IMG/VR virus record: IMGVR_UViG_2825252539_000001
Location: 1 to 64,000 of that record
DNA from: a virus
Taxonomy: Duplodnaviria; Caudoviricetes
Length of the DNA stretch: 64,000 nucleotides
Reading direction: 5' to 3' (one strand)
The position numbers were made by a program, and so were the translations under genes. Below the pieces are notes generated by a model. It saw only the letters and a list, made by a program, of their open reading frames with translations, did no database searches and had not been told where the DNA came from. The first letter of the stretch is position 1. Each line of letters begins with the position of its first letter. Below are positions 2,498-18,691 of the stretch, in pieces.

Positions 2498-3691
2498 ATG
2501 GCTCGACAGAGACGCGGGTTCGGACGCATCCGGCAATTCAAGTCGGGCCGCTGGCAGGCATCCTATACCGGTCCTGACGGAAACCTGTACATCGCGCCGG
2601 AGACCTTTGCCGCGAAGATGGACGCCGAAGGATGGCTCACCGACCGCCGCCGCGAGATCGACCGCGAGCTGTGGAGCCCGCCGGCCACAGTGGATCAGAA
2701 GAAGGCGAAACGCGCCGCCGAGATCACGTTCAAGGAGTACGCCGAAACATGGGTCAAGACCCGTACCGTGCGCGGCCGACTACTCGCAACACGGACACGC
2801 GAACACTACGAGGATTTGCTTGAAGACCATATAAATCCAACGTTCGGCACATTGCCCGTTGTCGACATCACAATTGAAACAGTCGACCGCTGGTACGCCA
2901 CAACTTGCCCGAACGCACCCACGATGAAGGCGCACGCCTATTCACTGTTGAAGTCCATTCTGGAGACGGCACGGGTTCGCGACCGCCTGATTTCCACTAA
3001 TCCCTGCGTGATCCGCGGCGGCGGCACATCTCGTCGCAAAAGCAAGACGAAACTTGCCACCCTAGAGCAAGTCGAAATCATCGTTGAGGAGATGCCCGAC
3101 AGATTCAAGCTAATGATCATTCTCGCGTTGTGGACAACACTGCGGTTTAGCGAATTGGTGGAGCTACAACGCAAGGACATTGATGTGACTCAGCGGTCGG
3201 AAATCGACGAGGATGGAGAAGTTGTCGTAATCCGTGAGGGCGTCATCAATGTGAGTAGAGGCGCGAAGCGGACAAAGTCCGGATGGGAGTTTGGCGACCC
3301 CAAGAGCGAGGCCGGCATCCGAGATGTGAGCATTCCGCCACACGTACTGCCGGCGGTGCTCGACCACCTAGAGCGGTACGTGGCCACCGGGGGAGAAGCG
3401 CTGTTGTTTCCGCCCGTGTCGGGCGATCCTACGAAGCGGCTGCAACCATCCACGTTTTACCGCCACTACCACCGCGCCAGGGCGAAGGCGAAGCGTACCG
3501 ACTTGAGACTCCATGATCTGCGCCATACGGGCGCGACGATGGCTGCACGAACGGGCGCGACGCTGGCGGAACTGATGGCTCGCATTGGACATTCGACGCC
3601 ACAAGCCGCAATGCGGTATCAGCATGCCGCTGCTGGGCGCGACAAAGAGATTGCGGCGAGCATGTCAAAGCTGGCTGCAGGGACGGTTTGA
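2498..3691 (+). CDS. int: Tyrosine integrase
   Basis: 397 aa; L5-like arm-binding N-terminus (RRGFGRIRQFKSGRWQASY); catalytic R (LRFSEL), HDLRH, GH and Y (AMRYQH). Confidence 0.97.
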   Translation: MARQRRGFGRIRQFKSGRWQASYTGPDGNLYIAPETFAAKMDAEGWLTDRRREIDRELWSPPATVDQKKAKRAAEITFKEYAETWVKTRTVRGRLLATRTREHYEDLLEDHINPTFGTLPVVDITIETVDRWYATTCPNAPTMKAHAYSLLKSILETARVRDRLISTNPCVIRGGGTSRRKSKTKLATLEQVEIIVEEMPDRFKLMIILALWTTLRFSELVELQRKDIDVTQRSEIDEDGEVVVIREGVINVSRGAKRTKSGWEFGDPKSEAGIRDVSIPPHVLPAVLDHLERYVATGGEALLFPPVSGDPTKRLQPSTFYRHYHRARAKAKRTDLRLHDLRHTGATMAARTGATLAELMARIGHSTPQAAMRYQHAAAGRDKEIAASMSKLAAGTV

Positions 3692-8186: not shown

Positions 8187-9181
8187 GTGCAATGGTCGGA
8201 ACTAAATCACGAACAGCAGGTGGCATTAGCGGGGTGGTACCTCATCACCCTCGCTGTGCCGGAACACGTGCGTCCGACGGACGACATGCCCCTGGATTAC
8301 TCCAGGGCGATAGCCGAATTGTCAGCTACGGCAGGCCATTACGCGCCCCGCAGATTCATCCGCCAACGCCTCGGACCGGGCATTCCGCTCAACCGACAAC
8401 GCAAGGTCCGAGTGCGCAAACAGCGCCATCAACTCGCAACGAACGTCGGCGAGCCCGCGGTCTAGCATGAACGCCACCGAAAAGTTCGAGCAACGGATCA
8501 TGCTTCATGACCAGCTCGTAACCATCGATCATGACCTTGAGTTTGTGTTCGCCGAACCTCCGAGTCATCGTGTCGTTGAGGATGCCCGTCGGCTACTCAA
8601 TGCCCGCGCTGACCTCTGCGATGAGATGATGGCCGCCGGTTTCCAGCCCTGGGGTGTTCCAATCGATGAGCTGGAAGCGAAGGTGTCCTGATGAATCTGG
8701 GCGCCGCCCTTGAAGACCATGTCGCCCAACGCGCGTACATGATCGATGTCGGCTTTCACTTGGATGAACTGCGGCACATGATCATTGACGGAATGACCGG
8801 GACTAGCGACGAGCGTCTGATCAACAGATTGCTGGCCGAGGTCGACGCGGCCGACCATCAATTGAGTCGGGCGCTGATGTGAGTTCCGACTGTGTCGGTG
8901 CATTCTGTCCACCGCCCCCTCCGCCACCGCCTCCGATGCCTGAGCCTCCAATTGATTACACACCCTGGATAATTGGCGGCTCCATCGTTCTTGGCGTCAT
9001 CGTTCTACTGCTGATCATTCGGGGGTTGGTGCGCGGCATCGCGCGCCGACGCCGAATCGCTAGTGAAAACCGTGCAGCCCTTCTCCGTCGGGCTGAGCAA
9101 CAGAACAACGAGATCTCACACGGGAATCTCGACGCCATCTTCGGGGACTATCGCCCCGTCGACATCGAATGGAAATCCTGA
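8187..9181 (+). CDS. Four small ORFs (8187-8465, 8467-8691, 8691-8882, 8879-9181); the last is a poly-Pro single-pass membrane protein
   Basis: Strong SD GAGGAGG before GTG 8187; abutting ORFs; TM WIIGGSIVLGVIVLLLII. Confidence 0.65.
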
Positions 9182-10107
9182 TGAAGAAGATCGCCATCGC
9201 CCTCGCCGCCAGCGTCGCCGCCGTCGGCCTCACGGCTGGATCGTGTGAGTCGTCGCCGGGTAGGGTCACTACACCCGAGGGTATGTGTGCCTACCTTGTG
9301 GGTAATGGCAACCAGCTCAACGGAAACCGGACCGTTAACGACATCATCTACCCGGGCAACTCGCGCGATTACAACCAGGACTACGACCAGGCCAAGTACT
9401 TCCCCTGTGGTCCTCGGAACTACATCGTCAGCCCCAACAGCGGTGATGCCGGCGGCAAGGATCTCCTCGTGGGTCGAACGAAGCAGGGGACCAGTGTGCA
9501 GGTCTCGGCGTCGGCGTATTGGATGCCTAACCTTCAGGAATCCGTTCTGCGCCAGTTCATCACGCTGTGCCAGAAGTACAACTGCGCCAACGACAACCTC
9601 GACGGCAACAGCAACGCGTCCAACTTCGCCAGCCCAGGTTGGAACGGAATGCTCGCCGAGAACTTCCACCCTGCATTCCAGCGCGCTGCGGCGGCAGTAC
9701 TGCCCACCATCGACGACTCGGCGTGGCAGTCGGCGAACCAGGATGAGCGAAACAAACTGGCCGCCGGCATGTCTGATCGATTTCTCACCGAACTGCAGAC
9801 GGTGACTGGGTTCACGGCTCCACTGTTCTGCTCGTCGGGGTCGACAGGTTCCAAGACCAGCTTCGATTGCGGCAACATTCGCATCGTGGTGGACTACGTT
9901 GCCGCTGCCGACAACTCGCTCCAGCAGCAGACCGACGAGAACATCAAGCGCCAGCGCGAGATCGAGATGCAAAGGCAGGCCGCTCAAGCGCGGATCGATC
10001 TGACAAACCAGCTCTACGGCCCCGACCTCGGCGCTGTCGTGCGGGCTTGCCAGGACGTCCAGTCGAGTTGCGTCATCGCCAATTCGCCTGTGCAGGTGCA
10101 CAAGTAG
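9181..10107 (+). CDS. Lipoprotein, probable SPFH/Band-7-like
   Basis: Signal MKKIAIALAASVAAVGLTAGSC with lipobox-like Cys; C-terminal Ala/Gln coiled coil; GWNGML...F motif resembling actinophage Band-7 proteins. Confidence 0.55.
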   Translation: MKKIAIALAASVAAVGLTAGSCESSPGRVTTPEGMCAYLVGNGNQLNGNRTVNDIIYPGNSRDYNQDYDQAKYFPCGPRNYIVSPNSGDAGGKDLLVGRTKQGTSVQVSASAYWMPNLQESVLRQFITLCQKYNCANDNLDGNSNASNFASPGWNGMLAENFHPAFQRAAAAVLPTIDDSAWQSANQDERNKLAAGMSDRFLTELQTVTGFTAPLFCSSGSTGSKTSFDCGNIRIVVDYVAAADNSLQQQTDENIKRQREIEMQRQAAQARIDLTNQLYGPDLGAVVRACQDVQSSCVIANSPVQVHK

Positions 10108-10292: not shown

Positions 10293-11858
10293 ATGTTCAA
10301 GCGCATCTGGGGTTGGCTCGCCACCCTCCTGCTCGTGGGACTGATGGTCGCCCCCGGGGCGTCCGCTGACCCGTACACCGACGGCCTGGTTAAGAAGTTC
10401 AACCAGACGACCCACGTCGTCACCGATCCCGCGGCCAAGCCGCCGCTGACCAACGGTCCGGCGTTGAATGACCAGATCGTGCAGGGCCGGCGCCCGATTT
10501 ATGTCGCCGTCGTCGCGCCGCCACAGTCGGGCGTGACCACCCCGGACTCGCTGTATTTAGCTTGGACACGGGTGCGCGGTCGATTCGAGGGCGTGCTCCT
10601 GGTGATGGACGCCAAGGGCTATCACGTTCGGGGATTCAACGTCCCTCAGCAGGTCGCCAATAGCATCAACCCGCTCATCGCCCAGTCGATCGCAGAACAC
10701 CGCAATGACCCTGCCGGCACCCTGTCGGCGTTCGTGAGCAAGCTCTCCCAGGTCAAGCCAGCTCCACTCTCGGCGCCCGCGGCACAGACGCATGAGCCGC
10801 GATCATGGACGTGGCTGTGGGTCACCCTGAGCATCATTGGCGGCGTCATCGTGCTCGCCCTGCTGATCTGGGGCGTCAGTGCATACGCTCGCCGTCGCTC
10901 GGCGAAGCGCGAGGAATTGGAGAATCTCCAGGATTCGATTATCGGTGTCGAGGCTGGCGCCGATGACCTAGCCTCTGCGGTGCTCAAGAGCATGGTCGAC
11001 GTCTCCAGCGAGCAGTCCAAGGTATCGCTCGCGCTCGCGGATGCGAAGAAGGCCTTCAAGGACAAGGACTATGCGACGGCGCGTTCACACCTCGCGGTAG
11101 CGAACAAGTACATCGCAGCAGCCAATGCGAAACTGAAGCCGCCCGTGCCGGCCGGCGAGACCTTCACGACGGTCAATGAGAAGCGGGCAGCTGCGAGGGT
11201 GGAATCGGAGCCGACGGAACGCCGGCAGGGCTCGGTCAGGGCCACGAACCCGGACACCGGCCGCAAGGTCACGATCAAGAACTACAACTACCGAACCAAT
11301 GAGACCGCGCAGTACCCGCACTATTACGGCGGCGGCTACCTCAATGGGCTGTACTTCCATCCCGGCTATTACCCGTACCCGTTCTGGGGCGCCGGCTGGG
11401 CCTGGTCACCGGTTGATGTTCTGTTGACCCACGAGCTGCTTGCCGACCACTGGGAGGGCGCCGCGAGCACCCCGACGTACGATGCCGGCTACGACACACA
11501 GGCTAGTACAGAAGCGGCCGGCTGGAACGAAGACACGAACTTCGCCGGCACGACAACAGATGCAGGGTTTGACGGTTCCGACGTCAGCACCACCGATTCA
11601 TCCTCGTCGGACTTCAGCTACGCCGGTTCCGATGACACGCCGTCGTACTCGTCCAATTCAGACAGCGACTACTCTGGCAGCTCCTCGTCATCGAGCGATA
11701 GTTACAGCTCAAGCTACGACTCCGGGAGTAGCGGTTACAGCAGCAGCTACGATTCATCGAGCTACGACTCCGGATCATCCACCAGTAGTTGGGATTCCGG
11801 CGGTTCAAGCTACGACTCGGGCAGCAGTTCAAGCGGGTTCGACTCCGGAGGTTGGTAA
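10293..11858 (+). CDS. Membrane protein with TPM-like extracellular domain and Ser/Asp/Gly/Tyr-rich tail
   Basis: Signal peptide, central TM helix, helical region, SSSYDSG repeats and terminal GGW as in TPM-domain proteins. Confidence 0.65.
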   Translation: MFKRIWGWLATLLLVGLMVAPGASADPYTDGLVKKFNQTTHVVTDPAAKPPLTNGPALNDQIVQGRRPIYVAVVAPPQSGVTTPDSLYLAWTRVRGRFEGVLLVMDAKGYHVRGFNVPQQVANSINPLIAQSIAEHRNDPAGTLSAFVSKLSQVKPAPLSAPAAQTHEPRSWTWLWVTLSIIGGVIVLALLIWGVSAYARRRSAKREELENLQDSIIGVEAGADDLASAVLKSMVDVSSEQSKVSLALADAKKAFKDKDYATARSHLAVANKYIAAANAKLKPPVPAGETFTTVNEKRAAARVESEPTERRQGSVRATNPDTGRKVTIKNYNYRTNETAQYPHYYGGGYLNGLYFHPGYYPYPFWGAGWAWSPVDVLLTHELLADHWEGAASTPTYDAGYDTQASTEAAGWNEDTNFAGTTTDAGFDGSDVSTTDSSSSDFSYAGSDDTPSYSSNSDSDYSGSSSSSSDSYSSSYDSGSSGYSSSYDSSSYDSGSSTSSWDSGGSSYDSGSSSSGFDSGGW

Positions 11859-12068
11859 GTGACCTCTTGGAAGATGTCGGAGACGCAGCAGGGCATAGTC
11901 TTGCGAAACGTCAGATCGAATCTGGGCGTGTATATCGAGCGTCTGCGGAACCTTCCGCACAGCCCGCATATCGACCAGGCCATCAATCACATGTACGAAG
12001 CGATCGATGAAATCGACCTGACTGCGGACAGCCGCGAGATTGTTCTCGCGGCGAAGATGCCGACTTAG
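11859..12068 (+). CDS. Hypothetical protein
   Basis: 69-aa ORF abutting the upstream stop, SD GGAGG upstream. Confidence 0.6.
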   Translation: MTSWKMSETQQGIVLRNVRSNLGVYIERLRNLPHSPHIDQAINHMYEAIDEIDLTADSREIVLAAKMPT

Positions 12069-12175
12069 ATTTAGCGGCGGCATAGGCGGTTCCTACTAAA
12101 CCTTTCATTTTGCGAACAAAATACCGCCCGCCCCATAAAGCTTAGGTGCATAGGTAGTTCCTACAATGACGCCCA

Positions 12176-12247
12176 TCGGCAGGTCGCAGGTTCGAATCCT
12201 GCCCGCGTAGCGTTAGCTACGTGGTAGCTCAGTGGCAGAGCAGCCGA
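12176..12247 (+). ncRNA. Circularly permuted tRNA module in array unit 2 (YrlA-like)
   Basis: TCGGC, variable AGGTC, T arm GCAGG-TTCGAAT-CCTGC, loop-closed acceptor CCGCGTAGC-GTTA-GCTACGTGG, D arm TAGCTCAGTGGCAGAGC, GCCGA. Confidence 0.9.
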
Positions 12248-12542
12248 CTCTACAGTAATACTCCCCGCACCTAATTTCGATGTGGCATAGAGAGTTCCTA
12301 CTACCTTGTTAATTTGCAAACACCATTACTCTCCGCTGCGTCAACTTACCTGTGGCACAGAAGGTTCCTCCAAAATTCCTGCTAATGAACATACCTTCCG
12401 CCGCTTAAGACTCAAGGAGTTTCGCACTAAGATTCGATAGTCGGTGGCATAGGCGGTTCCTCCATTAACTTTCAATTGGTGAATCAAATACCGCTCGCCA
12501 CTCATTTTACCGGCATAGGTAGTTCCTCCATTAACCTGTGGA

Positions 12543-12614
12543 GCCGGATGTCGCTGGTTCGAGTCCAGCCATCCCGTCAATGACGGGGTGTAGCTCAGTT
12601 GGAAGAGCGCCGGC
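12543..12614 (+). ncRNA. Circularly permuted tRNA module in array unit 6 (YrlA-like)
   Basis: GCCGG, ATGTC, T arm GCTGG-TTCGAGT-CCAGC, loop-closed acceptor CATCCCGTC-AAT-GACGGGGTG, D arm TAGCTCAGTTGGAAGAGC, CCGGC. Confidence 0.9.
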
Positions 12615-12784
12615 CTGAATTTACTACCCGCCACATAACAACCGATGGCATAGAGGGTTCCTACCAAACCTTTGAATGGATCAGATTTACCCTCCGCTGC
12701 CGGATAACTGCGGCATAGAACGTTCCTCCAAAAACTTCCTGCTAATGAATCATACGTTCCGCCGCTTACAACAAAGGATCTGAC

Positions 12785-14641
12785 ATGGAATCATCGCTGC
12801 GTTTGTTCAAGGCTGTCCTGGTCAACAACCATGACGGCAAGCCGGATGCGTTCGCAGCCCTCGCTGCGCAGACCGTGAAGAATGGTTTCATCTTCGCACC
12901 CGAGGTCGCGACGGAGTACGCGCACACTCAGCTGGTTCAGCAGGTCGACAAGCTGTTCGGCCGAAATGCCGCACAGCTCAACAACTCTTTCCATAAGTCG
13001 TTCGCTAAGGTGCGCGACGCATCGATCCTGCAGCTGTGGGTCGAACAGTCGTTGCACTACCTGACGACGTACGGATTCGAGCACCTCGGCATCTTCAGCA
13101 ATGACACCATCTACGTTCCGAAAGAGGCACTCGACCTCCCTGACATCGACGGCATTCGCCTCGTCGTCATCCGCGGCCTTACCCACCGTGAGATGAAAGC
13201 CGAGCTGCTGAAGCTCCTGGCGACCGGCATCGCCCTATCGCAGCAGTCGGTGACCGATTGCGTGGATGTCGCGCAAGTGCTCACCCTCACACAGGACGAG
13301 GTCGAATCGGTCAAGAACCGCGAAGTCAAGGCCGCCCTCTACGACCACTTCGGCATGGTGCCGTCCGACCCGGTGGAGTTCCTGCGGTTCGTCGTCTACC
13401 GGGCAACTGAGAAGACGCTGCTCATCAAGAACGCCGAGCTGATCAGTGCGCTCAAGACTCGCAACAACAACGACCTGGTCCGCTACTTCCAGGCCTACGA
13501 CGCCGCCAAGCTCGCCACGATCTTCAACCGGTATAAGCCGATCTTTCTTGCGCTGCGGACCAACCCGGCGCTGAAGAAGAAGATCAACCAGGTTCGCCGG
13601 CTGGCCGTGGCCAACCATAAGCCGATGCCCGAGGACTACCTCAACTCGATCACCGCCCGCCTGACGCGGAACGAAGGGATCGATATCCGGGATCTGTCGG
13701 CGAACCTCCAGGCCGCCAACGTCTTCCGCAAGATCCGCCTGGCCTACGCTCTGAAGTTCCGCACCACCAACCCGGATTCGATCCTGTACCGGGTGCGCAA
13801 CGGTAAGTCGTTCGCCAAGGCGTTCTCGTTCACCAACAACAACGTCGAGCACATCTACCAGTACGTCCTGGCGTCCATCGTCAACGACGTCCGGCCGAAT
13901 GTCGCCGGCAAGACGGTCTACATCCCGAAGGGTCTGACGTACGCCCTGCCGGCTACGGAGAAGCAGTTTACTGGCAACCTCCCAACGGGGACGTGCGTCG
14001 AGGTCACCGATGATCTGATCGCAGGCGTCCACTGGCTGGATGTAGATGGCAGCACCATCGATCTCGATCTCTCCATCGCGAACCTCGGCGGAAAGATCGG
14101 GTGGGACGCCCGCTACCGCACGGGTCAGGCTCTCTACTCGGGCGACCTCACCGCGGCACCGCCGCCCCACGGCGCCTCGGAGGTCTTCCGGATCACCGGC
14201 CCGGGCTCGTGGCTGATGTCGGTGAACTACTACAACTACCGCGACAACGTGGACGTGCCGTTCAAGATCATCGCCGGCAGCGACAGCGCGAAGATGATCA
14301 CGGCCAACCGCGTCATCGATCCGAAGTCGGTTGTGGCGTTCAGCAACTCGGTGATGGACGTCCAGCAGAAGACGCTGGGCCTCATTGTCGCCGACCACGA
14401 GAGCAAGCGCTTCTACTTCACCGAAGCGGACTTCATGAAGAGTCGGTCGGCTCGCCATACCACGGCAGCCGAGCACACCCGGCGGTACCTCTACTCGTAC
14501 TACGAGAACACGATCAACCTGAACGACGTTCTCATCGCGGCCGGCGCGATCCTGATCGATACCCCGGAGCAGGCCGACATCGACCTGTCGCCCGAGGCCG
14601 TCGACAAGACGACGATCATCAACCTACTGACGGCGGCATGA
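12785..14641 (+). CDS. 618-aa protein with helical basic N-terminal region and TerD-like C-terminal domain; candidate partner of the RNA array
   Basis: SD AAAGGA; strong phage codon bias; C-terminal VHW...DLDLS...IGWD...YSGDLTAAP...GASE...VNYY motif is TerD-like; N-terminal FHKSF...QSLHYLTTYG. Confidence 0.7.
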   Translation: MESSLRLFKAVLVNNHDGKPDAFAALAAQTVKNGFIFAPEVATEYAHTQLVQQVDKLFGRNAAQLNNSFHKSFAKVRDASILQLWVEQSLHYLTTYGFEHLGIFSNDTIYVPKEALDLPDIDGIRLVVIRGLTHREMKAELLKLLATGIALSQQSVTDCVDVAQVLTLTQDEVESVKNREVKAALYDHFGMVPSDPVEFLRFVVYRATEKTLLIKNAELISALKTRNNNDLVRYFQAYDAAKLATIFNRYKPIFLALRTNPALKKKINQVRRLAVANHKPMPEDYLNSITARLTRNEGIDIRDLSANLQAANVFRKIRLAYALKFRTTNPDSILYRVRNGKSFAKAFSFTNNNVEHIYQYVLASIVNDVRPNVAGKTVYIPKGLTYALPATEKQFTGNLPTGTCVEVTDDLIAGVHWLDVDGSTIDLDLSIANLGGKIGWDARYRTGQALYSGDLTAAPPPHGASEVFRITGPGSWLMSVNYYNYRDNVDVPFKIIAGSDSAKMITANRVIDPKSVVAFSNSVMDVQQKTLGLIVADHESKRFYFTEADFMKSRSARHTTAAEHTRRYLYSYYENTINLNDVLIAAGAILIDTPEQADIDLSPEAVDKTTIINLLTAA

Positions 14642-16116
14642 TCCTTCTCTTGGGGCTGTTGGCCTACTTGGTCATTGGTCTGTTCTTCAGTCGGTGGGCC
14701 TACCGGACGCACCTTTGGATCAAAGACGGGGACGTGATCTGGCTGATCTTGTTCTGGCCAGTGATCGCCGTCCTTCGGCCAGCGGTCAGGTTCTTCCGAT
14801 GGTTCTACAAACGCCCCGCGGATAAGCGCAAGGGAGCTTGATGGCAAAGGGTGATCCCGAACGTCAGGCGAAGTGGCAGGCGCGCTCAGAAGAATGGGCG
14901 CGTCTTGCCACGCTGTCGAACGACGTCCACATCATCTTTCAGTGTGAAGCCTCTTCGAGGTATTGCGCGAGCATGGCTGAGTTCTGGAGCAAGTGGTGAC
15001 GGACTCTCGCGATCCCGCACTGCGGTGGTTCTTCGCTGGCACTGAGATCAGCGAGGAGAAAGCGTTGTGGCTGGAGGACTCGGGCCAAGCACATGTTGCT
15101 CAAGGCTCATCGGGAGGCGCGCGCTCGCTTCCGGTCGGGGAAGTCTTCACTGACGACGAAAAGCCCGATGGCCCATGGTGTCTCATGAAAGCCGGTCCAG
15201 GCAATGTGTGGATCGAGAAACGCGAGGGCGACTGCCCTGAATGCGGCCAGCCTTGGAAGACCCATCTCCGCCCGGTGTGGGTCCGAAAAGACAAGGACCA
15301 CCGCTGCGTCGAGACGCCCCCACTCACTATCTGCCCGTTCTGCGGTGAGATCGGTGTCTACTGGGAAGACCGCGGGCCGGCGTACAACAGTTACCTCGGA
15401 TACGAGGTTCGAGCAGCTGGCATTCGACACTTCAACGGCGAATCGCACGAGGATTGGTAGTGACAGAGAAATCAGGCGTCACCGGTAAGACAGTAATCCA
15501 ACTGGCCCGCACAATCAGTGCGAAGGACCGTGAAGCCGCTCGCGCTCAACGGTCTAGCGAAGAACAGTTGGCACTTCTCGATACCCGCCCCGGGAAGTCG
15601 CAGAAAGAGCGCGCACGGCTCGCCGGCTGATGGAACTCGGCGACACGATGATGGAGGAGCCGTTCGACTGGGACGGCTACTTCGACGATCAAGAGCGCGA
15701 CTACACCATCGCGATGCTCACCTGCCCGTACTACTGGAATGAGCGGATCGAAGGCGCGACATGTCGAAACGGATGCGTTGAAGAGCCCGCCTGCCACACG
15801 GGAGGTCCATTCGAGTTTCCGCCCGATTGGCCACCTGAACGGTGCTTATCCCGCGCTGTTGACCGACACGTGCACGAACACCCACCAGCGTGAGGAACCC
15901 ATGACCGCATACTCAGTCCACTTCACCACGCCGGCATCAAGAATCGTCCGCGTAGAAGCGGATGACCCCGACGAGGCTATCGAAAAGGCGGACAACGAGG
16001 TTGGCTGTGTCCTCTGTCATCAGTGCGCCGGGGAGATTGATCTAGCCGGCGTGTGGGAGCCCGTTGTGGTATTCGACGATGACAAGAACGAAGTCGCCTG
16101 GGAAGACCGCATCTAG
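14638..16116 (+). CDS. Small hypothetical ORFs (14638-14841 membrane, 14993-15460, 15630-15893, 15901-16116)
   Basis: Co-oriented ORFs with overlaps or SDs; several CxxC motifs. Confidence 0.55.
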
Positions 16117-17001: not shown

Positions 17002-17703
17002 ATGATGCGACGTTACTTCATTGAGTCCGTTGGTGTAGCGATGCTCGCTACGGGCGCCTCGTACATCATTGCCTATCTTGCCGGCTGGATTACGGCCGTG
17101 AATTGGCTGGAAGTGTTCGCCGTCTGGACCTCCTATGCGTGCACGTGGCTGTGCGTTCGCCAGAGCCGCTGGAACTACCCGATCGGCGCCATCTCCACCG
17201 CGGCCTACGCCGTATTGTTCTGGCAGGCAGATCTTCTCGCCTCGGCTCTGCTGAACGCCTATCTGACGCCGGCACTCCTCTACGGGTGGTTCCGCTGGCG
17301 TCAAGACTCCGAGACCCGACCAGTGACCCGCGTCGCTTGGAAGTGGTGGCCGGCGTATATCGGGGTAACCGCCGCGGCTTATTACGGTGCGATCTGGCTG
17401 GTAACCACCCTGAAGGGTAGCTTCTCGATCACCGATGCGCTCATCCTGATCGGGTCCATGCTGGCTCAATTCTTGTTGGATAACAAGAAGATTGAGACCT
17501 GGGCCGTCTGGGCGATCGTCAACGTCGCAGCGATCTACACGTACTTCCACGCGAGTCTCCCGCTCGCGGGATTCCAGTACATCCTATTCCTGGCCAACAC
17601 CGGTGTTGGCTATGTCGTCTGGAGGCGTAGTGTCCAAAGCGTTCGTGCTCATGAAAGCTATGCCGCCGACCACGGGTCATCTGCAGCTCATCCAGTTCGC
17701 TAA
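17002..17703 (+). CDS. pnuC: Nicotinamide riboside transporter PnuC
   Basis: Multi-TM protein with WLE..AV.....CTWL..RQSRWNYPIG, YGWFRW, DA.....S.LAQFLL..KKIETW..W..VN motifs; SD AAGGAGG. Confidence 0.92.
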   Translation: MMRRYFIESVGVAMLATGASYIIAYLAGWITAVNWLEVFAVWTSYACTWLCVRQSRWNYPIGAISTAAYAVLFWQADLLASALLNAYLTPALLYGWFRWRQDSETRPVTRVAWKWWPAYIGVTAAAYYGAIWLVTTLKGSFSITDALILIGSMLAQFLLDNKKIETWAVWAIVNVAAIYTYFHASLPLAGFQYILFLANTGVGYVVWRRSVQSVRAHESYAADHGSSAAHPVR

Positions 17704-18691
17704 GCACCTCAGCCCCGCGGGCGTAACCGTTCTTATCGATACGATTCCCGCTGAGCCAATGGTTCCTGAACGTATCGCGGCCTTGAAGAAGGCGACTTAT
17801 CGCCTGGGTAACGTTCACATCCAACACGTTTCTCAGTGGCTTCCGGAAGACCCCGAGTCAGAGGGTTTCCGAGAGCTGTGGCGCGGGATTCTGATCGGTG
17901 CCGGCGCGCGGCCAGGCGACTACCTGGTGACGAGTGAGCCGTACGGCAAGTGGCTGGCCGAATTGACCGAGACTATCTGGATGCCCTACGACATCCCGCG
18001 GTTTATCAACGGAACACGGGCGACTGCCATTCGCGATGACTTCGTGAGCAATTGGCGGGCAATCCTTCCCGAGTTCCGCCCTCACTTGCAGACTCGCGTG
18101 ACGATCTTCGGCGCCGAGTCGACGGGGAAAACCGATCTCTCATGGATGCTCGCTGACGACCTCGACGCGACGTGGTTGCCCGAGTGGGCGCGGCCGTACC
18201 TGGAGAACGACGAGAACATCGTCAATGTCCGGACTATGACGAACATCTGGCACGGTCAAGCCGCGCTACAGCGTCAAGAGTTCCTGGACACCCCGATCAT
18301 CATCCAGGACACCGACCTTCTCAGCACCTGGGGCTACTGGAAGTACTGGGCTCACCATTACGACAGCTTCGAGCCTTTCGCTCGTCCGCGGTTGACCGAG
18401 TGGGTTCCTCAGGCGCTAGATGACGAAGCGCGCGAGCTTGCTTCCGACCTGTACATCGTCACGCCGAGCAACATCCCGTTCGAGCCCGACCCGCTGCGGT
18501 ATGGCGGCGACAAGCGCGAGATCGACGACCACTACTGGGGCAATTTCCTCGCCCGCGTGGGCGCCAGCGGACGGAGCATTAACTACCAGTTCCTGACGAG
18601 CGAGTCACGGTCGGACCGTCTAGTCGAGGCCAAGGGATTCATTCAGCGGGTGATCGACCAGAAGCAAGCCAAGATCGCCTACAAGCGTTAG
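17630..18691 (+). CDS. nadR: NadR-like NMN adenylyltransferase / nicotinamide riboside kinase
   Basis: N-terminal nucleotidyltransferase motif PPTTGH; P-loop GAESTGKT; EWARPY, DTD and PFEPDPLRYG motifs; adjacent to pnuC; GTG start with SD GGAGG. Confidence 0.88.
   Translation: MSKAFVLMKAMPPTTGHLQLIQFAKHLSPAGVTVLIDTIPAEPMVPERIAALKKATYRLGNVHIQHVSQWLPEDPESEGFRELWRGILIGAGARPGDYLVTSEPYGKWLAELTETIWMPYDIPRFINGTRATAIRDDFVSNWRAILPEFRPHLQTRVTIFGAESTGKTDLSWMLADDLDATWLPEWARPYLENDENIVNVRTMTNIWHGQAALQRQEFLDTPIIIQDTDLLSTWGYWKYWAHHYDSFEPFARPRLTEWVPQALDDEARELASDLYIVTPSNIPFEPDPLRYGGDKREIDDHYWGNFLARVGASGRSINYQFLTSESRSDRLVEAKGFIQRVIDQKQAKIAYKR

Follow-up and report, generated by a model that had tools for sequence, protein, structure and literature searches.

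Eight RNA units ahead of a 618-residue protein gene

The DNA analyzed here (the window) covers positions 1-64,000 of a provirus record of 152,748 bp, IMG/VR IMGVR_UViG_2825252539_000001, and encodes a tyrosine integrase (2498-3691) along with early genes of phage type on the + strand. Between a 69-amino-acid (aa) open reading frame (ORF) that ends at 12068 and a 618-aa ORF at 12785-14641, whose product is hereafter P0001, there lies an array of eight tandem units on the + strand (12076-12765), each consisting of a near-invariant base, or handle, and a variable cargo. Here, we establish that array and gene represent a conserved two-part module, in which a handle RNA with swappable, often transfer RNA (tRNA)-derived cargo is accompanied by one protein family. 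The observation is real, strongly non-random, and widely generalizing, and the array units probably belong to a widespread family of small viral RNAs that none of the libraries searched lists.

A regular-expression (regex) scan placed the 5' cores (GCA[T/C]AG-NNN-GTTCCT[A/C]C) at 12080, 12148, 12285, 12355, 12447, 12513, 12648, and 12713, each with its matching 3' TAC-N'N'N'-C-[C/T]-GC, and gave 0 cores on the other strand of the window. Common to all eight units are the first stem (P1), an A-N-A/C internal loop, the second stem (P2), and the GUUCCU...UAC element, and RNAfold assigned the same P1, 3x1 internal loop, and P2 fold to 8 of the 8. In this arrangement P1 has 3-6 bp, AUA (ACA in unit 4) is opposite a single C, and P2 has 6 bp that join G-NNN-G-U with A-C-N'N'N'-C, followed by UCCU(A/C)C, the cargo, and U. 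An earlier note on this DNA had described eight tandem units with a common scaffold and eight NNN/N'N'N' pairs, including the single mismatch of unit 2, and these are present exactly as claimed, with the G-U closure of unit 5 as our addition. As for the fixed AUA-opposite-C loop of that note, the loop itself is found in all eight units, but its AUA sequence is not fixed, given the ACA of unit 4. The distance of about 20 nucleotides (nt) from the last unit to the ATG of the 618-aa gene is likewise confirmed (12765 to 12785).

When aligned, units 1-4 are colinear with units 5-8, which shows a four-unit block that was duplicated and then diverged, and between the block copies there are compensatory P2 changes, such as GAAGG/CCTTC in unit 4 as against GAACG/CGTTC in unit 8. 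The eight units of the window are also the largest array that we saw. Two other readings of the repeats were rejected: a K-turn, by eye, as the pairs beside the 3-nt bulge covary as Watson-Crick pairs, and a CRISPR-like array, as each unit pairs with itself and identical direct repeats are lacking. The units and the adjoining gene are detailed in Table 1.

Table 1. Units of the array and the downstream gene (handle scores are from covariance model R1; MFE, minimum free energy)
Feature	Position	Strand	Description
Unit 1	12076-12134	+	Handle P1, AUA/C loop, P2 GGCGG/CCGCC, GUUCCUAC...UAC; cargo a small hairpin, UUUUG-CGAA-CAAAA; R1 77.3 bits
Unit 2	12144-12272	+	Handle, P2 with a single mismatch; cargo a tRNA-like domain in permuted order (anticodon-like stem, T arm, closed acceptor stem, D arm)
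Unit 2 tRNA-like domain	12178-12248	+	Rfam YrlA model positions 23-88, 36.8 bits, E 3.1e-6
Unit 3	12282-12339	+	Handle, P2 GAGAG/CUCUC; cargo short and AU-rich; R1 61.5 bits
Unit 4	12352-12404	+	Internal loop ACA in place of AUA; cargo UUC-CUGCUAAU-GAA; R1 67.1 bits
Unit 5	12443-12502	+	P2 closed by G-U; cargo hairpin CUUUCAA (anticodon-loop-like) or UUCA-AUUGG-UGAA (D-loop-like); R1 74.9 bits
Unit 6	12512-12632	+	Handle, small hairpin, permuted tRNA-like domain; MFE -51.7, z -3.48; R1 22.8 bits
Unit 6 tRNA-like domain	12545-12612	+	Rfam YrlA model positions 23-85, 36.8 bits, E about 3e-6
Unit 7	12647-12698	+	P2 GAGGG/CCCUC; cargo UGA-AUGGA-UCA; R1 65.7 bits
Unit 8	12710-12765	+	P2 GAACG/CGUUC; cargo like that of unit 4; R1 73.6 bits
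AAGGA, Shine-Dalgarno-like	12774-12778	+	6 nt before the ATG at 12785; read from the sequence
P0001, 618 aa	12785-14641	+	Mostly helical N-terminal part (~1-375) with a few short strands, TerD-fold beta-sandwich (~405-570), C-terminal helices

Spread and cargo of the RNA family

A covariance model (R1), built from six short units of the window, matched only array units, both in the window and in the whole provirus. We then searched 83 related phage loci (80 IMG/VR loci with relatives of 37-60% identity and three GenBank phages; 777,129 bases, both strands), where R1 gave 198 matches at E<=1, all on the strand of the 618-aa gene homolog. By a regex finder that is independent of R1, there were 220 units on the + strand and 0 on the - strand (85 sources). 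The 83 loci account for 206 regex units, of which 188 precede the gene by no more than 800 nt, 9 follow it closely, and 9 are in other positions. Loci hold 1-7 units, most often 3, with spacers mostly of 10-24 nt, and the gene begins a median of ~26 nt after the last unit. All 77 phage loci that include upstream DNA have one unit or more when regex and model are taken together; as to the six loci with no regex unit, three (L013, L045, L073) lack such DNA and three (L066, L072, L076) have a model match. The array is therefore coupled to the 618-aa protein family as the earlier note had proposed, with homologs accompanied by same-strand units that are mostly directly upstream.

Moreover, among 95 units of other phages, 98.5% of the cells are paired and double changes, in 261 cells, affect 9 of 11 pairs, values that 500 shuffles reached 0 times for the paired percentage and the double-change cell count and once for the 9-pair count, although it tells against their full weight that the sequences are related and were aligned to R1, by which pairing is favoured and the counts are inflated. 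This pattern supports the earlier note in its view that the RNA structure is under selection. Invariant or nearly invariant alignment columns are C7, A8, A10, G15, U16-U20, U69, A154, C155, C160, and G161, and the handle is maintained across contigs of 20% to 58% GC.

Set against these results, the reading of the units as non-functional repeats or chance hairpins, whether a decayed tRNA cluster or a mobile repeat, has a negligible chance of being right. Some cargo does look like tRNA fragments, and ARAGORN called 0 tRNAs in the window, but the handle and its compensatory changes extend across hundreds of divergent viruses, the strand bias is absolute, and the position relative to one gene is fixed. 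We also think it highly improbable that the array is divided into units by the handle itself, acting as a small self-cleaving or self-processing ribozyme, with the protein association being secondary. There are ~15 invariant nucleotides concentrated in the internal loop and at the junction, the arrays are tandem with short spacers, the context is that of tRNA-rich phage genomes, and a weak Twister-sister row exists (17.9 bits, E 0.8; probably noise), yet no known ribozyme family is matched at threshold, and such a tight family-wide coupling to one protein is atypical of small ribozymes.

Beyond phages, we searched 80 further loci from bacterial or archaeal genomes or metagenome-assembled genomes (MAGs) that encode homologs of the protein, and R1 gave 78 matches at E<=0.1, all on the + strand, in 58 of them. 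R1-positive loci come from Chloroflexota, Cyanobacteria, Planctomycetota, Desulfobacterota, Gammaproteobacteria, Bacteroidota, Firmicutes, and Fibrobacterota, as well as from archaeal contigs (Asgard, DPANN, Thermoplasmata, Methanobacterium). Within the 22 R1-negative loci, a looser regex applied to 15 revealed credible units in 9, and the other seven have at most ~200 nt of upstream DNA. Together with the phage matches, this search answered in favour of the earlier note the question whether homologs of the protein are accompanied by similar arrays, with all model matches on the gene strand. Ten of the loci are archaeal MAG contigs (L086-L090, L093-L095, L131, L152), all with the protein gene and all except L094 with handle units; they are labelled Promethearchaeota, Pacearchaeota, Nanoarchaeota, Woesearchaeota, Borrarchaeum, Thermoplasmata, and Methanobacterium (L093 being only 'archaeon'), and may represent either archaeal viruses or a binning artefact.

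In the reverse direction, the exact 5' half-pattern was searched in viral contigs, where at least 119 stretches match, 80 loci being among the matches listed. The protein is in the locus for 13 of these 80, and the remaining 67 listed are mostly chance half-matches with no 3' half. Credible units without an adjacent gene, again among the matches listed, are those of L192, L200, L201, L203, L230, L232, and L246. Five of these seven records were searched whole, and the protein was found in the sole complete one and in one that is 28% complete, and was absent from the three that are 5-18% complete. Apart from P0001 homologs, no other protein family is conserved beside the units' gene in 70 loci. 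At gathering scores, Rfam 15 finds no family in the window, and only tRNA and transfer-messenger RNA (tmRNA) in 14 related loci.

As regards the cargo, a T arm is present in 17 of 186 distinct units, be it in a YrlA-type permuted domain, as a T arm plus hairpin, or in a whole tRNA. One such tRNA is nested in the handle at L080 3630-3745 (Rfam tRNA, 56.8 bits), and another, read by eye, is in the unit at L201 1487-1599 and has an encoded CCA. Hairpins with a 7-nt CU-NNN-AA loop occur in 20 of 157 short units (0.95 +/- 0.97 in 500 shuffles; 'anticodons' GUU x6, UUU x4, and UGA x4) and D-loop-like A-N(1-3)-GG loops in 25 (3.2 +/- 1.7), counts that are not of independent events, since the units are related to one another. 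Family-wide, then, the cargo is often tRNA-derived. In three Gammaproteobacteria genomes or MAGs (L122, L123, L125), the units show a T arm and acceptor 3' strand ending in GCCA, a spacer, and then the acceptor 5' strand and D arm, and so resemble truly permuted tRNA genes with long inserts, inside the handle.

Of 60 loci scanned for tRNA genes, 17 contain them, in every case on the strand of the units. In the cyanophages S-CRM01 and S-CBWM1, gene and units are inside tRNA clusters, and a tmRNA gene directly adjoins the units of the gut phage Phass-1. For the window itself, the Rfam tRNA model gave only a T-arm fragment (15.8 bits). The Phass-1 units, four to six in number (L003 8017-8481 and 8488-8926), occupy an unannotated gap directly upstream of the tmRNA (Rfam, 77.9 bits), and the record annotates neither. 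In S-CRM01, the annotated 48-aa ORF g173c (L001 4791-4937, - strand) overlaps a + strand unit (L001 4818-4875) and is probably spurious.

Among the genes around the array, a 67-aa hydrophobic ORF at 14638-14841 (+) has an ATGA overlap with the stop of the 618-aa gene and is in the same frame as an ORF at 14101-14841, with no conservation in related loci. Upstream of the array are a 521-aa ORF (10293-11858, +) with no informative family and a weak TPR_21 match (E 0.0013), and a 312-aa ORF (9169-10107, +) that matches phrog_31970, of unknown function. Farther downstream, a 399-aa ORF (17492-18691, +) matches AAA_28 and phrog_3462, a nicotinamide-nucleotide adenylyltransferase, and the Phass-1 homolog of this 618-aa gene is located ~0.6-4.5 kb downstream of genes for nicotinamidase, phosphoribosyl pyrophosphate (PRPP) synthetase, and NAMPT; hence, nicotinamide adenine dinucleotide (NAD)-salvage genes are near the module in two unrelated phages. 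Scans for promoters and terminators revealed no enrichment, and the region had no Megablast match among phage records.

The 618-aa protein compared with TerD and Ro60

When candidates were scored at E<=1e-3, at least 1,881 proteins, all of them 'hypothetical', fell into the P0001 family, which has 1,401 clusters at 50% identity and is mostly viral by its Atlas labels. Its only GenBank phage records are those of the Synechococcus phages S-CRM01 and S-CBWM1 and of Phass-1. P0001 matched no family in Pfam, PHROGs, or PADLOC (for PADLOC, 0 families at E<=1 with 4 family members), its sequence-profile search of the PDB gave 0 matches, and Pfam TerD (PF02342) had no match at E<=1 in P0001 or 58 members. 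Structurally, however, the earlier note was right in calling this a TerD-domain protein. An AlphaFold2 model from 58 sequences (predicted local distance difference test, pLDDT, 92.2; predicted template modelling score, pTM, 0.90) has a TerD beta-sandwich as its C-terminal part, with VIA-align superposing residues 407-569 on 2qz7_B at Z 9.9 and a root-mean-square deviation (rmsd) of 3.2 for 144 aligned residues, and on 2kxt at Z 8.8, and with Foldseek giving a probability of 1.0 against 3ibz, 2qng, and 2kxt. Four acidic residues of this part are invariant (D426, D428, D454, and E466), and belong to DLDLS, SGD, and GASE motifs similar to the Ca2+ sites of TerD. As a lead only, TerD is on 22% of members of an Atlas neighbour cluster.

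The N-terminal part, folded alone (pLDDT 82.5), had no Foldseek match at E<=1e-3, and its best VIA-align Z of 6.2 stems from helical pieces of 60-80 residues. In BFVD, there are full-length structural relatives from other phages, all uncharacterized. Fused, longer relatives of P0001 were not found, in a search that counts as weak evidence. Botulinum-neurotoxin and Cry-toxin Foldseek rows for the full model were dismissed as noise (probability 0.05-0.4, rmsd ~30), and L043 1783-3636 was rejected as a paralog.

The TerD-like region is homologous to the corresponding region of the cellular MXAN_6230/SCO0854 RING family (NF041916; hhalign probability 94%, E 1.5e-7), and the NF041916 model itself finds P0001 at E 6.5e-7, scoring 27.9 bits within residues 415-467, far short of its cut-off of 600. 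No handle units were seen beside MXAN_6230/SCO0854 genes at one full and one partial member. A cellular RING protein of this family at L169 1462-4026 (-), with 836 bits to NF041916 and the GASE and DLDLS motifs, may be a cellular relative of the phage protein.

Ro60/Y-RNA systems are also known in phages (PMC4201824; PMC12135203), and the Ro60-Yrl complex of phiLo attenuates the host polynucleotide phosphorylase (PNPase) (PMC12135203). For the RNA, Chen et al. (PMC4201824) propose GNCGAAN0-1G near the 5' end as the site of Rsr. This motif has 0 occurrences in 12061-12780 and in the first 30 nt of 206 units (0/206), and is found anywhere in 3/206, which upholds the earlier claim of a recognition helix other than the Ro type. 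A tRNA-like domain of YrlA type (T arm, closed acceptor stem, D arm) is seen only in units 2 and 6 of the array, where RF02553 at relaxed thresholds scores 36.8 bits, below its gathering score of 69, and leaves the terminal, Ro-binding stem unmatched. For the protein, TROVE had no match in P0001 or 58 family members, TROVE (PF05731) was found in 0 of 11 phage records (the provirus and 10 carriers, 7 of these at least 90% complete) with positive controls in D. radiodurans and B. thetaiotaomicron, and P0001 family profiles gave an hhalign probability of 0.1% against 9 Ro60 proteins from TROVE-positive genomes. P0001 is thus not a detectable TROVE/Ro60 protein, which favours the earlier note, as does the second check that it had named: the units do not amount to ordinary YrlA served by a true Ro60 encoded elsewhere in the provirus or in the 10 carriers. 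Conversely, 10 true TROVE loci gave matches to YrlA or Deinococcus-Y-RNA-type Rfam models in 7 and to R1 in 0.

For these reasons, we regard as very unlikely an ordinary Ro60/Y-RNA system made of a very divergent Ro60, with TerD replacing the vWA domain, and of divergent YrlA/YrlB RNAs. Units 2 and 6 do score like the true YrlA-type matches beside TROVE genes, which are also below gathering (36.6-46.6 bits), but several of the latter span model positions 1-114, and the match here covers positions 23-88. Similarly, helical repeats with a metal-binding C-terminal domain would parallel Ro60, and Ro60 chains yield the longest alignments among the weak structural rows of VIA-align, namely 9l5y_B (Z 4.9-5.2, 154-197 aligned, rmsd 4.9-6.4) and 1yvp_A (Z 4.5, 276 aligned, rmsd 5.8), but both are within the helical-repeat noise. 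At Z 4.5-5.2, that is, within this noise, a structural relation of the modelled helical part to Ro60 would still be conceivable.

A proposed ribonucleoprotein and its comparison with known systems

We consider it somewhat probable that array and gene encode a ribonucleoprotein (RNP) like that of Ro60 and Y RNAs but assembled from other components, with the protein recognizing the invariant handle and the RNAs presenting mimics of tRNA. Judged by the genomic coupling, such a Ro-analogous reading is the best available explanation, and we infer protein-handle recognition as the most economical mechanism. Each RNA would be a long hairpin with the near-invariant handle at its base (P1 of ~5 bp, the 3x1 loop of A-N-A opposite C, the 6-bp P2 with covarying inner pairs, and the invariant G-UUCCU...U-A-C) and interchangeable cargo on top. 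The invariance at the top of P2, where G-C and U-A never covary and U-C follows, recalls the tRNA T-arm invariants G53, T54, pseudouridine 55, C56, A58, and C61, and may offer a docking site for the GG hairpins of D-loop type. One transcript would carry the units together with the neighbouring 618-aa gene, plus tRNA genes in phages that are rich in them, and would then be cut into single units. By binding the handle, the protein would give rise to a family of RNPs that display tRNA mimics, and the tRNA-like modules might interact with host factors that bind tRNA, among them nucleases and enzymes of processing or modification. Their role may be that of decoys against tRNA-targeting defences or of adaptors for RNA turnover or repair, as we propose on account of the cargo type and the precedent of phiLo Ro60-Yrl and PNPase.

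Several points weigh against this proposal. Transcription, processing, handle binding, and biological role are all steps that we infer, and an invariant handle across bacterial and archaeal viruses also fits a universal host factor as its reader. TerD domains are known as Ca2+/ligand-binding modules, not as RNA binders, and neither Foldseek nor VIA-align recognized an RNA-binding fold in the N-terminal part. In about two thirds of the units (123/186), the cargo has no recognizable tRNA feature, and single-unit folding z-scores in the array are modest (-0.85 to -3.5). By the looser regex, five genome loci with upstream DNA have no unit (L094, L145, L151, L158, L164), and L121 has only a probable chance match. 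Lastly, a complete phage genome of 424 kb has its units scattered at a distance from the protein gene, so that adjacency of units and gene is the rule but not absolute.

The host factor leads to an alternative that we find unlikely, though deserving of attention, whereby host enzymes (RNase P, RNase III/E, or T-arm enzymes) read the handle as a signal for processing, stability, or cis-regulation. The array would then be an expression cassette for tRNA-like RNAs as well as a gene leader, and the 618-aa protein would have tRNAs or something else as its target and not bind the handle. In favour of this, the invariant G-UUC...A-C of the handle resembles the invariants of the tRNA T arm. Units are also located in a 5' leader, with the last one ~20 nt before the start codon, they are interleaved with tRNA genes, and whole tRNAs can nest in the handle. 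Moreover, RNase P cuts the M. smegmatis YrlA (PMC4201824). Yet the handle is invariant from Bacteroidota to Asgard archaea with this protein as its sole co-inherited partner and no other conserved neighbour, and units that are downstream of the gene or far from it weaken a pure-leader reading.

With protein-handle recognition as the favoured reading, a broader and more speculative extension is that of a viral platform, in which one handle and a helical-plus-TerD protein load interchangeable tRNA modules. These might include elbows, T arms, and entire tRNAs as well as the anticodon loops of certain tRNAs, with GUU, UUU, and UGA found repeatedly, and with the arrays as programmable decoy or adaptor sets. 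Such a platform, which we offer tentatively, could have arisen independently of Ro60 with the YrlA-like module borrowed, and might serve against tRNA-targeting immunity or redirect host tRNA enzymes.

In the literature searched, which was without most subscription journals and supplements, there was no description of the handle RNA or the protein. The RNA family would be new in that nothing in Rfam 15 reaches threshold, and the protein family in that it has no Pfam, PHROG, or PADLOC match. If the protein binds the RNAs, this would be a second, independent class of Ro/Y-RNA-like RNP, and a widespread one given the 1,401 clusters. It would also account for unannotated gaps within phage tRNA clusters, and its tRNA-piece cargo bears on the way viruses cope with tRNA turnover and with defences aimed at tRNAs. 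A handle that stays constant while the cargo is exchanged could likewise be usable as an RNA-scaffold tool. As the cultured cyanophages S-CRM01 and S-CBWM1 carry the module, it is open to experiment.

Compared with known systems, the units share strand and clusters with tRNA genes, and their cargo, with T and D arms, loops like those of anticodons, and sometimes a complete tRNA, is reminiscent of tRNA-like RNAs such as tmRNA and YrlA, but the units are defined by a non-tRNA handle, and no cloverleaf is called in the window. P0001 has the same beta-sandwich as TerD (2kxt, 2qz7, 3ibz), but here the domain is fused to a ~375-aa helical part and coupled to an RNA array, whereas TerD proteins are found in membrane-stress (Ter) operons. 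With the MXAN_6230/SCO0854 family, P0001 has in common the motifs GNxPxGT, DLDLS, and SGDxTxAPxPxGASE and, as a lead only, an Atlas structure row (TM 0.60, 496 residues aligned), the difference being that no RING family was found in P0001 or 58 members.

In relation to Ro60 and Y RNAs, the handle (GGC-ANA-P2-GUUCCU) differs from GNCGAAN0-1G and is absent from true Ro60 loci, and P0001 is without a TROVE signature and has a TerD C-terminal domain where Ro60 has vWA. The arrays here reach 8 units, and most cargo is a short hairpin instead of a full tRNA-like domain. The resemblance is in the architecture: in both systems, several different RNAs adjoin one protein gene, units 2 and 6 have the T-arm, closed-acceptor, and D-arm core of YrlA, and the small RNA is modular, combining a terminal stem as the presumed protein handle with a tRNA-mimic module.

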